IMG/VR virus record: IMGVR_UViG_2671180268_000011
Source: a virus
Taxonomy: Duplodnaviria; Heunggongvirae; Uroviricota; Caudoviricetes
Direction: 5' to 3' (one strand)
Length of the DNA stretch: 4,489 bases
The first letter of the stretch is position 1, and the number at the start of each line of letters is the position of its first letter. Made by a program: the position numbers. This document shows positions 1-3,000 of this stretch, piece after piece.

Positions 1-3000
1 GTGCGCGTGAATGAATGGTTCAGCGCGTATGCGATGGCGGGTGTGGCTTACAGCCGTGTGTCGACTTTTTCCGGGGATTATATCCGCGTAACTGACAATA
101 AGGGGAAAACGCACGATGTGCTGACCGGAAGTGATGACGGTCGCCACAGCAACACGTCTCTGGCGCACTGACGGTTTCATCGTGGGTGTCGGTTATAAAT
201 TCTGATTAGCCAGGTAACACAGTGTTATGACAGCCCGCCGGTTCAGGCGGGCTTTTTTGTGGGGTGAATATGGCAGTAAAGATTTCAGGTGTACTGAAAG
301 ACGGCACAGGAAAACCGGTACAGAACTGCACAATCCAGCTGAAAGCAAAACGTAACAGCACCACGGTGGTGGTGAACACGCTGGCCTCAGAAAATCCGGA
401 TGAAGCCGGGCGTTACAGCATGGACGTTGAGTACGGTCAGTACAGCGTTATTCTGTTGGTGGAAGGATTCCCGCCGTCACATGCCGGGACCATCACTGTG
501 TATGAAGATTCCCGACCCGGTACGCTGAATGATTTTCTCGGTGCCATGACGGAGGATGATGCCCGTCCGGAGGCACTGCGCCGTTTTGAGCTGATGGTGG
601 AAGAGGTGGCGCGTAACGCGTCCGCGGTGGCACAGAACACGGCAGCCGCGAAGAAATCAGCCAGCGATGCCAGCACATCAGCCCGTGAGGCGGCAACCCA
701 TGCGACTGATGCTGCAGATTCAGCACGTGCAGCCAGCACGTCAGCCGGACAGGCCGCTTCGTCGGCTCAGTCAGCGTCTTCCAGCGCAGGAACGGCATCA
801 ACAAAGGCCACTGAAGCCTCAAAAAGTGCTGCCGCTGCAGAGTCCTCAAAAAGCGCGGCGGCTACCAGTGCCGGTGCGGCGAAAACGTTAGAAACGAATG
901 CGGCAGCGTCACAACAATCAGCAGCCACTTCTGCATCCACCGCGACCACGAAAGCGTCAGAAGCTGCCACCTCAGCCCGGGATGCGTCGGCTTCAAAAGA
1001 GGCGGCAAAATCATCAGAAACGAACGCATCATCAAGCGCCAGTAGCGCAGCTTCCTCGGCGACGGCGGCTGCAAATTCTGCGAAGGCGGCCAAAACGTCC
1101 GAGACGAACGCCAGGTCTTCTGAAACGGCAGCGGGACAGAGTGCCTCAGCTGCGGCAGGCTCAAAAACAGCGGCTGCGTCGTCTGCCAGCGCCGCGTCAA
1201 CAAGTGCCGGGCAGGCCTCAGCCAGTGCCACCGCCGCCGGAAAATCGGCAGAAAGCGCCGCATCATCCGCTTCAACAGCCACAACGAAGGCTGGCGAAGC
1301 CACTGAGCAGGCCACGGCAGCAGCGAGGTCAGCTTCCGCAGCGAAGACATCCGAAACGAACGCGAAAGCGTCGGAAACCCGTGCAGAATCCTCAAAAACG
1401 GCTGCCGCATCGTCCGCCAGTTCGGCGGCGTCATCGGCATCATCGGCGTCTGCTTCAAAAGATGAGGCGACCAGACAGGCGTCAGCAGCGAAGGGCAGCG
1501 CCACGACGGCATCCACGAAGGCGACAGAGGCTGCTGGTAGTGCGACGGCAGCAGCTCAGAGCAAAAGTACGGCGGAATCTGCAGCAACGCGCGCTGAGAC
1601 AGCGGCAAAACGGGCAGAGGATATTGCATCCGCCGTGGCGCTTGAGGATGCGAGCACGACGAAAAAGGGGATAGTACAGCTCAGTAGTGCGACTAACAGC
1701 ACTTCCGAGTCACTGGCGGCAACACCAAAAGCCGTTAAGGCCGCGTATGACCTGGCTAACGGGAAATACACCGCACAGGATGCAACGACAGCACAGAAAG
1801 GGATAATCCAGCTAAGCAGCGCGACCAACAGCACGTCTGAAACGCTGGCGGCAACGCCAAAGGCAGTAAAAGCAGCCAATGACAATGCTGAGAAACGTCT
1901 GCAGAAAGATCAGAACGGTGCGGATATCCCTGGCAAAGACACCTTTACGAAAAATATTGGTGCCTGCCGTGCCTTCGGTGGGTCAGTAAGCACAACAACA
2001 GGAAACTGGACGACTGCACAGTTTATCGAGTGGCTGGATTCTCAGGGAGCATTTAACCATCCATACTGGATGTGCAAGGGTTCCTGGTCTTATGGCAATA
2101 ATAAAATCATTACTGATACTGGCTGCGGTAATATTCATCTCGCCGGAGCTGTCATTGAAGTAATGGGGATAAAGTCAGCGATGACGATCCGCATTACCAC
2201 TCCGACCACATCCAGCGGTGGCGGAACAACCAACGCCCAGTTTACCTATATTAATCACGGAACAGATTATTCACCTGGCTGGCGAAGGGACTATAACTCC
2301 AGAAATAAGCCAACGGCATCAGAGATCGGGGCGCTACCGTCAGGTGGAACAGCAGTATCATCAGTTAATCTGGCTTCAAAAGGTCGGGTAGCCGCGCTGA
2401 CAGACAATACGCAGGGGGCAGCAGGTCTTGAGTTATACGAGGTGTATAACAACGGATATCCAACAGCGTATGGAAATATCATTCACCTGAAAGGGATGAC
2501 AGCCGTTGGCGAAGGTGAGTTACTCATCGGCTGGAGTGGTACAAGCGGTGCTCATGCTCCGGCATTTATTCGTTCACGACGGGATACGACCGACGCAAAC
2601 TGGTCGCCGTGGGCGCAGCTTTACACCTCGGCTCATCCTCCTGCAGAGTTTTATCCAGTCGGTGCACCAATCCCGTGGCCATCAGATACCGTTCCGTCTG
2701 GTTATGCCCTGATGCAGGGGCAGACTTTTGACAAATCTGCTTACCCGAAACTTGCAGCCGCTTATCCGTCAGGCGTGATCCCTGATATGCGTGGCTGGAC
2801 GATTAAGGGCAAGCCCGCCAGTGGTCGTGCCGTATTGTCTCAGGAACAGGATGGCATTAAATCGCACACCCACAGCGCCAGCGCATCCAGTACGGATTTG
2901 GGGACGAAAACCACATCGTCGTTTGATTACGGCACTAAATCCACGAATAACACCGGGGCGCATACGCACAGTCTGAGCGGCTCTACAAGTTCAGCTGGGG

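Follow-up and report, generated by a model that had tools for sequence, protein, structure and literature searches.

Does the lower-GC centre of this side tail fibre gene (stf) represent a receptor-binding module acquired by exchange, as was proposed from the sequence-only reading? To address this question, we compared the window, i.e. the whole stretch of 4,489 nucleotides analysed here, to which all nucleotide positions refer, with related phages, prophages and fibre structures. The features identified are listed in Table 1.

Locus and architecture of Stf

The window comes from the end of a lambdoid prophage that is decaying, with the gene order lom–stf–tfa. Shigella sonnei Ss046 encodes an identical Stf protein, and there stf is preceded by the genes for tape measure, M, L, K, I, J and lom. 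The lom gene has lost 83 nt between CTGGCG direct repeats (junction at 160-165), which truncates it and shifts its frame, as judged from the break in collinearity with PhiR26_1 and from the junction sequences. In the intact stf gene, the start of lambda stf corresponds to the ATG at position 270. The tfa gene retains 36 N-terminal codons (3353-3460), beyond which ~283 nt are deleted internally and the frame is shifted, and its C-terminal part is still readable as an ORF at 3417-3650. A 64-nt deletion is already present in tfa of Ss046, and the window is short of 218 nt more. The gene family of the cognate chaperone Tfa is present, but the copy in the window is a pseudogene, and since this chaperone gene is broken, the fibre of this particular locus is probably not assembled. 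Downstream of tfa, ev099 and PhiR70_1 match the window up to position 4399 (97-98% identity by blastn), after which an IS1 element begins, in agreement with an IS1 annotation and a DDE_Tnp_IS1 gene downstream. An Rfam scan gave a single match, IS009, on the tfa remnant, and none in the region 1900-2650. Locus L013 was considered as a second context of the same Stf and was dropped, as it is a scaffolded draft with N runs joining stf fragments.

Table 1. Features of the lom–stf–tfa window and the evidence for each.
Feature	Position	Strand	Basis
lom, 3' part (Ail/Lom outer-membrane protein)	1..171	+	Pfam PF06316, E 1.8e-27
stf, side tail fibre gene, intact, 1029 aa	264..3353	+	ORF; Pfam PF08400, PF03406 and PF07484
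Stf N-terminal tail-attachment domain, aa 3-136	270..671	+	PF08400, E 1.4e-71
Ala/Ser/Thr-rich proximal shaft (72% A+S+T)	561..1610	+	composition; alignment gap to lambda
Two copies of a 132-nt unit (two Phage_fiber_2 repeats)	1645..1883	+	repeat search; PF03406, two stretches; blastn
Domain A, Cys-containing globular domain, aa ~546-690, starting at a 20-residue motif	1899..2333	+	
Exchangeable cassette, bounded against ev099, 2H10, Kati and Chlobot	1931..2619	+	identical break points in four phages
Domain B, second knob-type domain, aa ~691-790, ending in an 11-residue motif	2334..2633	+	similarity to P1 Sv′; PHROG
T4 gp37-like distal tip, aa 796-1029: collar, His-x-His needle repeats, head	2649..3350	+	2xgf, E 9.8e-82
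Hypervariable tip patch, aa ~907-965	2981..3157	+	blastn gap to PhiR26_1 and PhiR68_2; tip alignment
tfa pseudogene	3353..3650	+	translation and junctions; PF02413, profile positions 70-130 only
AT-rich region (24-39% GC) downstream of tfa, then IS1 start	3651..4489	.	composition; blastn

The encoded protein is a lambda-type Stf with respect to its PF08400 N-terminus, the place of its gene after J and lom and before tfa, and its C-terminus with a gp37-like collar and needle. Residues 3-96 additionally match chain 9e7m_Ta, annotated as 'Tail fiber protein' (E 1.3e-51). With the Stf of Ur-lambda (774 aa) it has in common the gene position, the N-terminal domain, the Ala/Ser/Thr shaft, the Phage_fiber_2 repeat and the gp37-like tip with His-x-His, while the head patch of the tip differs and tfa is broken in the window. 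Its shaft, the Ur-lambda counterpart of which was termed proximal coiled coil (PMC12617516), is about 305 nt longer than that of lambda, which appears as an alignment gap at 1178-1483. Moreover, two Phage_fiber_2 repeats are present instead of the one in lambda. The repeat copies (1645-1751 and 1777-1883) are 74% identical, and a single stretch of the lambda and ev099-type genes aligns to both; Tandem Repeats Finder detected nothing in stf. Like the T4 long tail fibre with the knob domains of gp34 and gp37, the fibre is a succession of globular knobs ending in a collar-needle-head tip. This tip aligns to that of gp37, is homologous to the C-terminus of lambda Stf, and matches PF07484 in its collar (nt ~2661-2804) as well as PF03335.

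An exchangeable central cassette

The flanks of the central segment are common to ev099, 2H10, Kati and Chlobot up to exactly position 1930 and again from exactly position 2620. They are 84-95% identical at the DNA level and end abruptly, and between these two positions the four phages hold an unrelated cassette of 1148 nt without detectable homology to that of the window. This alternative cassette encodes T4 gp34-like domains (4uxe, 5nxf) together with Mu S′-like internal domains. Lambda has its own 440-nt segment, comprising hinge and distal coiled coil, in the same slot. Here the blastn matches stop at 1870 and resume at 2661, leaving 1871-2660 as the non-homologous stretch, and a blastp search with residues 530-805 against the reconstructed Ur-lambda Stf gave no match. 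These comparisons bear out the initial observation of a segment without counterpart in lambda Stf between two ends that match it. In lambdoid stf genes, this slot is thus filled in at least three ways, one of which is the cassette of the window.

The cassette of the window is by no means rare. It is 98.0-99.9% identical in seven lambdoid phages (PhiR68_2, PhiR26_1, PhiR29_1/2, PhiR42_1, mEp460_ev081 and Salmonella phage SPF_0923), which are collinear with the window from 160 to 2981/2998 at 97-98% DNA identity. Their proteins are 94-95% identical to that of the window, including the annotated Stf of PhiR26_1 and PhiR68_2. Unlike the window, these phages have intact lom and tfa genes and a replaced tip patch at 2981-3157. 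A literature search for a paper on the PhiR phages found none. Of 5426 complete E. coli genomes, 800 (~15%) contain at least 80% of the cassette, and the exact Stf variant is already annotated in several sequenced phages. Exchange of a central cassette is in itself an already known and common kind of tail-fibre mosaicism: mosaic tail-fibre genes across lambda, P2, Mu, P1 and T4 were reportedly described by Haggård-Ljungquist and colleagues in 1992, by Sandmeier and colleagues in 1992 and 1994, and by Hendrix and Duda in 1992.

Domains A and B and the probable seat of specificity

The Cys-containing peptide noted at 1981-2160 is indeed encoded there, in the stf frame 264-3353, and belongs to domain A. 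This domain is ~80% identical to Mu S′, P1 S′ and a P2-like H (NC_070905.1), and 82% identical to P1 Sv′. Residues 541-725 align with residues 178-362 of 8ju3, the structure of Mu S′ in the G(-) form (E 1.4e-69 for this stretch), with similarity over the full length of domain A and a matching fold. For 8ju3, the literature search yielded no primary paper, only a figure legend using the structure. Domain B is 64% identical to residues 47-153 of P1 Sv′. In contrast to the window, B precedes A in P1 S′, while in Mu S′, the P2-like H and most other homologues bearing A, this domain is followed by a domain of another type that is ~22% identical to B. All three are myovirus fibres with other N-termini and distal ends, yet they share the 17-residue junction motif with the window. 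As these alignments show, the domains are drawn from a common pool of enterobacterial fibre modules that includes Mu S′, P1 S′ and the P2-like H. In the PHROG profiles (fibres of 794-1385 aa), A and B are found in both orders and at internal positions only. A Pfam search of A and B separately assigned no family; there was only a sub-threshold match to Gp34_trimer, which lies on the A/B junction. The predicted structure, a monomer model, has a mean pLDDT of 68.6, and the AF2 confidence for domain B is only moderate to weak. A conserved His/Cys metal site in domain A was also considered and dropped: in an alignment with many invariant columns, the only Cys to reach a conservation of 90% or more is that at module position 86 (aa 621), while the His and the remaining Cys residues fall short of this level.

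Taken together, we consider it probable that the two domains form an internal, exchanged cassette with a structural role, and that specificity resides mainly in the gp37-like tip. The cassette sits between the two Phage_fiber_2 repeats closing the shaft and the collar-needle-head tip, and in the trimeric fibre it would form knob-like structural segments. A and B would stand in place of residues 394-525 of Ur-lambda Stf, which were assigned to hinge and distal coiled coil, with the gp37-like C-terminus as the receptor-binding domain (PMC12617516). The knobs might determine how long, stiff or bent the distal half-fibre is and serve to present the tip; we infer this structural role from position and conservation only.

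The tip itself is invariant apart from one patch. This patch differs between the window and PhiR68_2 although their cassettes are 99.9% identical, while Kati and PhiR68_2 have the same patch and different cassettes. The patch thus recombines independently of the cassette. When 2960-3180 was compared to 50,697 phage records, a single partial match of 46 nt (87%) at its 5' edge was obtained. The head patch at about 2981-3157 is the most likely specificity determinant, and receptor specificity would lie mainly there.

The central cassette could instead be the receptor-binding module itself, as initially proposed, such that its swap would retarget the fibre. Phages do exchange the cassette, homologues differ in domain B, and in both Mu and P1 the invertible segment that switches the host range and contains the variable part Sv′ includes domain A. 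In these two phages, domain A therefore always moves together with a change of specificity. Besides, P2, Mu and P1 use their fibres to recognise the LPS core. Several observations make this reading unlikely. The cassette is internal: it is followed by a complete gp37-like tip and stops ~240 residues short of the C-terminus, whereas a receptor-binding domain would be expected at the distal end. Despite their differing distal parts, fibres of Escherichia, Photorhabdus, Xenorhabdus, Yersinia, Edwardsiella and Acinetobacter retain domain A at 47-90% identity (mostly 63-90%), and neither A nor B is ever found at the C-terminal end of a PHROG fibre profile. In addition, the tip patch changes against a cassette that is 99.9% identical, and engineered chimeras of lambda Stf change their specificity through replacement of the distal part of the fibre (PMC11338833). 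The term 'swapped' is thus supported but 'receptor-binding' is not, as the cassette is internal, domain A is conserved and the hypervariable patch is located in the tip. Our search for published binding or host-range experiments on domain A or B found none.

Some known fibres carry two receptor-binding domains, of which one is lateral (PMC11990801). Domain A might likewise act as a second, lateral site that binds a conserved structure of the cell surface, for instance the LPS inner core, in which case Stf would be a dual-receptor fibre and cassette exchange would tune the host range together with the tip. We regard this as quite improbable.

Route of exchange and base composition

The exchange points fall in short motifs common to otherwise unrelated fibres. 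The 5' motif contains ATPKAVK followed by a 10-residue stretch, and the 3' motif has the form W..W..(L/V)YT followed by a 12-residue stretch; the junction at 1930 lies in an NGADIP motif and that at 2620 in the 17-residue motif. These positions suggest that the cassette would be exchanged by homologous recombination at the shared motifs.

A relic of a Din-family invertase system such as Mu gin/G or P1 cin/C, with site-specific exchange and a former crossover site near 1900, would also give rise to a swapped segment. Domain A starts ~50 nt inside the Mu G segment, and both A and B lie inside the P1 C segment. Furthermore, a Pin-type invertase closely follows tfa in several related lambdoid phages, and in the Qin prophage of E. 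coli DH1 (K-12 lineage) pinQ adjoins a stf remnant. However, the segment of the window is not invertible, unlike those of Mu and P1. A scan of the window for gix, hix and cix sites gave best scores of 16-17 of 26-30 positions, which is at chance level, with none near the junctions. No inverted repeats were found in 1500-3400 and no invertase ORF in the window, and the break points fall on coding motifs that are conserved as protein sequence, as is typical of homologous exchange. A site-specific origin is thus very unlikely.

The base composition had been the starting point for the proposed exchange. The three 60-nt blocks of 1981-2160 contain 48%, 47% and 42% GC (45.6% overall), just as counted by hand in the sequence-only reading. 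The shaft, on the other hand, had been put at ~67%, a value that occurs only as the peak of single 150-nt windows (66-67%); measured over 600-1600, it amounts to 62%. The average GC content of E. coli and Shigella genomes is ~51%, and the interval 1900-2650 as a whole has 50.5%. The dip relative to the shaft is genuine but modest, and the unusual part is the shaft and not the module. The high GC content of the shaft results from codon position 2 (GC2 0.78), in line with its Ala, Ser and Thr residues. Amino-acid composition together with gene-wide codon usage predicts 61.2% GC for the shaft and 52.1% for the module, i.e. 9.1 of the 11.5 percentage points observed. About four-fifths of the GC gap thus stem from the Ala/Ser/Thr codons of the shaft, and the lower GC content of the module is mainly an effect of amino-acid composition.

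At synonymous sites, the break is at most marginal. While GC3 shows no significant break (0.47 in the module vs 0.53 in the shaft, Fisher p = 0.19), GC at four-fold sites is 0.42 in the module and 0.53 elsewhere in the gene (nominal p = 0.02, uncorrected), although module and tip do not differ significantly (p = 0.27). Among windows of the same size, the one with the lowest four-fold-site GC in the whole gene begins at nt 1950. This small dip coincides with the cassette and may represent some compositional signature of separate ancestry. The view that there was no exchange at all, the GC dip being due to amino-acid composition and the difference from lambda to vertical divergence, accounts for most of the GC contrast and for the similar GC3 values, but is refuted by the flanks, which in all four phages break off at an identical pair of positions without detectable homology in between, and is further contradicted by the lack of blastp similarity of residues 530-805 to lambda Stf and by the same domains in P1 at 64-82% identity in a different order. 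The swap is accordingly supported by comparison, namely by shared flanks, three fillings and reordered domains, rather than by GC content. More generally, GC contrasts inside fibre genes mostly mirror Ala/Ser/Thr-rich shafts and not foreign origin.

The exact natural junctions at 1930 and 2620 mark where lambdoid fibres tolerate the exchange of a cassette. Together with the independent assortment of cassette and tip patch, they are useful, if of modest value, for the design of chimeric Stf proteins such as those employed in lambda-based delivery particles.

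Comparative evidence for an exchangeable segment in stf

On its defining features, the side tail fibre gene stf qualifies as a lambda-type Stf, the one exception being a broken chaperone gene. A sequence-only reading had proposed that a lower-GC central domain of this gene (1900-2650) is a swapped receptor-binding module. Comparison with other lambdoid phages, and not GC content, decides whether the gene is mosaic, and this comparison bears out the swap. From 160 to 2981/2998 the window runs collinear with phages PhiR26_1 and PhiR68_2 (97-98% identity), and the interval 1900-2650 is present in seven lambdoid phage records (98.0-99.9% identity). 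Matches to lambda end at 1870 and restart at 2661, with 440 nt of unrelated sequence in lambda between them, and blastp of residues 530-805 against the reconstructed Ur-lambda Stf gave no match. Phages ev099, 2H10, Kati and Chlobot all match the window up to exactly 1930 and again from exactly 2620, with an unrelated 1148-nt segment between these borders, and PhiR70_1 is divergent from 1111 on. Taken together, the break points in these phages and in lambda indicate that the slot occupied by this segment (cassette) can be filled in at least three ways, and that its borders are sharp and recur between phages.

The 5' border lies within the NGADIP codons, directly after the second Phage_fiber_2 repeat, and the 3' border within an 11-residue motif about 10 codons ahead of the 12-residue stretch that starts the collar domain. 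In the alternative cassettes, too, the protein sequence of both motifs is conserved, as would be expected if homologous exchange took place at shared linkers.

Of 5426 complete E. coli genomes, 800 carry the cassette at a coverage of at least 80%. E. coli DH1 (K-12 lineage) has 228 nt in its Qin prophage (locus L014, 2501-2728) that are 100% identical to 2392-2619, the 3' half of domain B. This remnant has truncated nohA on one side and the stfQ remnant, then tfaQ and pinQ, on the other; the ancestor of Qin evidently had this cassette too. That fibre segments are shuffled among lambda, P2, Mu, P1 and T4 has stood in textbooks since 1992-94. This shuffling has been put to use in engineered lambda-P2 Stf chimeras (PMC11338833). 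Given these precedents, the genome counts and the Qin remnant, the mosaicism is correct but long known.

Features of the window and of its Stf protein
Feature	Position (nt)	Strand	Remarks
lom, 3' part	1-171		
stf, side tail fibre gene	264-3353		intact, 1029 aa
Long ORFs over the shaft	767-1516	-	the three ORFs, 249-258 aa
	862-1629	-	
	898-1674	+	
132-nt unit, two copies	1645-1751, 1777-1883		74% identical
Cassette	1931-2619		domain A, aa ~546-690; domain B, aa ~691-790
Hypervariable tip patch	~2981-3157		aa ~907-965; ~905-970 in the alignment of eight tips
tfa, broken	3353-3650		
Rfam IS009 (RF02111) match	3430-3610	+	165.8 bits, E 2e-40, above gathering score
AT-rich stretch	about 3651-4398		
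IS1 element, start only	4399 to window end		

Base composition and domain content of the cassette

GC content had been the original argument for exchange. The hand counts for 1981-2160 were correct (48%, 47% and 42% per 60-nt block, 45.6% overall), and the value of ~67% for the shaft, the Ala/Ser/Thr-rich proximal part of Stf, was overstated: it is 62% over 600-1600, reaching 66-67% in single windows only. The whole interval 1900-2650 has a GC content of 50.5%. Split by codon position, the shaft (72% Ala+Ser+Thr) has a GC2 of 0.78 and a GC3 of 0.53, compared to a GC3 of 0.47 in the module (Fisher p = 0.19). From amino-acid composition and the gene's own codon usage, the shaft should have a GC content of 61.2% and the module one of 52.1%; amino-acid composition explains 9.1 of the 11.5 points of the gap. 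At four-fold sites a weak residual dip is seen (0.42 in the module vs 0.53 in the rest of the gene; nominal p = 0.02, uncorrected), where no difference is seen between module and tip and the lowest window of the same size begins at nt 1950. Domain A also has 44-48% GC in P1, Mu and a P2-like phage. The dip is therefore real but small and mostly an effect of protein composition, and by itself it is no evidence of foreign origin. The mosaicism was thus correctly recognised, although through a weak GC argument.

Domain A matches the structure of a Mu S/S′ fusion (PDB 8ju3; E 1.4e-69 for the stretch). Its identity to P1 Sv′ 215-358 is 82%, and Mu Sv′ and a P2-like H are about as close to it; domain A clearly belongs to the Mu S′ / P1 S′ / P2-H domain whose structure is given by 8ju3. 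Domain B is 64% identical to P1 Sv′ 47-153, but P1 has B then A, whereas the window Stf has A then B. Since A is followed by another domain, only ~22% identical to B, in Mu, in the P2-like H and in most of the 47 homologues examined, the cassette is itself composite. Pfam has no model for A or B, the only match being a sub-threshold one to Gp34_trimer at the A/B junction. AlphaFold2, run on the monomer, models the core of A with confidence (pLDDT 78-93 per 10-residue block) and B with moderate confidence.

The shaft is ~305 nt longer than that of lambda (1178-1483). The two copies of the 132-nt unit encode two Phage_fiber_2 repeats, and both align to one single stretch in lambda and ev099-type genes. 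The long ORFs over the shaft, which use the opposite strand or another frame, are most likely artefacts of repetitive GC-rich coding sequence; a similar antisense 'orf206b' is annotated in the old lambda record.

Internal position of the cassette and the variable tip

The receptor-binding role assigned to the cassette is probably wrong. In Mu and P1, domain A does lie inside an invertible, host-range-switching segment, and some known fibres bear a second receptor-binding domain in a lateral position (PMC11990801), so that receptor binding by the cassette itself survives as a minority reading. However, the cassette is internal and is followed by a complete T4 gp37-like tip at residues 796-1029 (2xgf, E 9.8e-82; Collar and His-x-His repeats). 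For Ur-lambda, the gp37-like region is described as the receptor-binding domain that binds OmpC, and residues 394-525 of lambda as a hinge with a distal coiled coil (PMC12617516). In PHROG profiles, A and B occur at internal positions only, in both orders, in fibres of 794-1385 residues. In fibres of six genera (Escherichia, Photorhabdus, Xenorhabdus, Yersinia, Edwardsiella and Acinetobacter), domain A shows 47-90% identity (63-90% in most cases) and many invariant columns, although these fibres differ in their N-terminal and distal partners. The ev099-type alternative cassette likewise consists of internal fibre domains, T4 gp34-like and Mu S′-like. T4 gp34 forms the proximal half-fibre and is not known to bind receptors.

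The eight aligned tips are invariant except for one patch, between an 11-residue and a 17-residue motif. This patch differs between the window and PhiR68_2, though their cassettes are 99.9% identical, and is the same in Kati and PhiR68_2, though their cassettes are unrelated; cassette and tip patch therefore assort independently. The window patch differs from every lambdoid Stf compared, with one partial match only (46 nt, 87%) in 50,697 phage records, and is probably the real specificity determinant.

We infer that the cassette would supply trimeric knob segments in place of lambda's hinge and distal coiled coil, and that these knobs would determine the distal half-fibre's length and geometry, with specificity coming mainly from the tip patch. 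The cassette probably spreads through homologous recombination at those junction motifs that are conserved. A site-specific origin by a Din invertase, which the Pin-type serine invertase directly 3' of tfa in PhiR68_2 (L004 5597-6187), 2H10 (L008 5879-6469) and Kati (L009 5924-6514) might suggest, is not supported, as the window showed no gix-, hix- or cix-like sites beyond chance, no inverted repeats in 1500-3400 and no invertase gene.

Prophage decay around stf

The Stf protein is identical to that of Shigella sonnei Ss046, whose locus is 99.97% identical to the window DNA and whose stf is preceded by a lambda-type tail operon (tape measure, M, L, K, I, J, lom). The three to four tandem stf-like genes on a draft S. 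sonnei contig (CXFU01000079.1) were dismissed as a scaffolding artefact with N runs and joined stf fragments.

The prophage is decaying in two genes, lom and tfa. Against PhiR26_1 and other lambdoid phages, lom has lost 83 nt between two direct repeats of CTGGCG (junction 160-165); this deletion shifts the frame and costs the beta-barrel protein its last ~43 residues. In tfa, 36 N-terminal codons are kept, followed by a loss of ~283 nt and a frameshift (junction ~3460), with the C-terminal part readable in another frame. This decay looks stepwise, because Ss046 tfa already has a 64-nt deletion and the window lacks 218 nt more. Stf assembly requires Tfa, and since tfa is a pseudogene, the fibre is probably non-functional at this locus.

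The IS009 match lies wholly within the tfa remnant, across the deletion junction. From 3651 to 4489 the DNA is AT-rich (24-39% GC) with short ORFs only. The AT-rich stretch is 97-98% identical to the DNA 3' of tfa in ev099 and PhiR70_1, both of which have an AraC-family regulator next; the homology to the window stops where IS1 starts.
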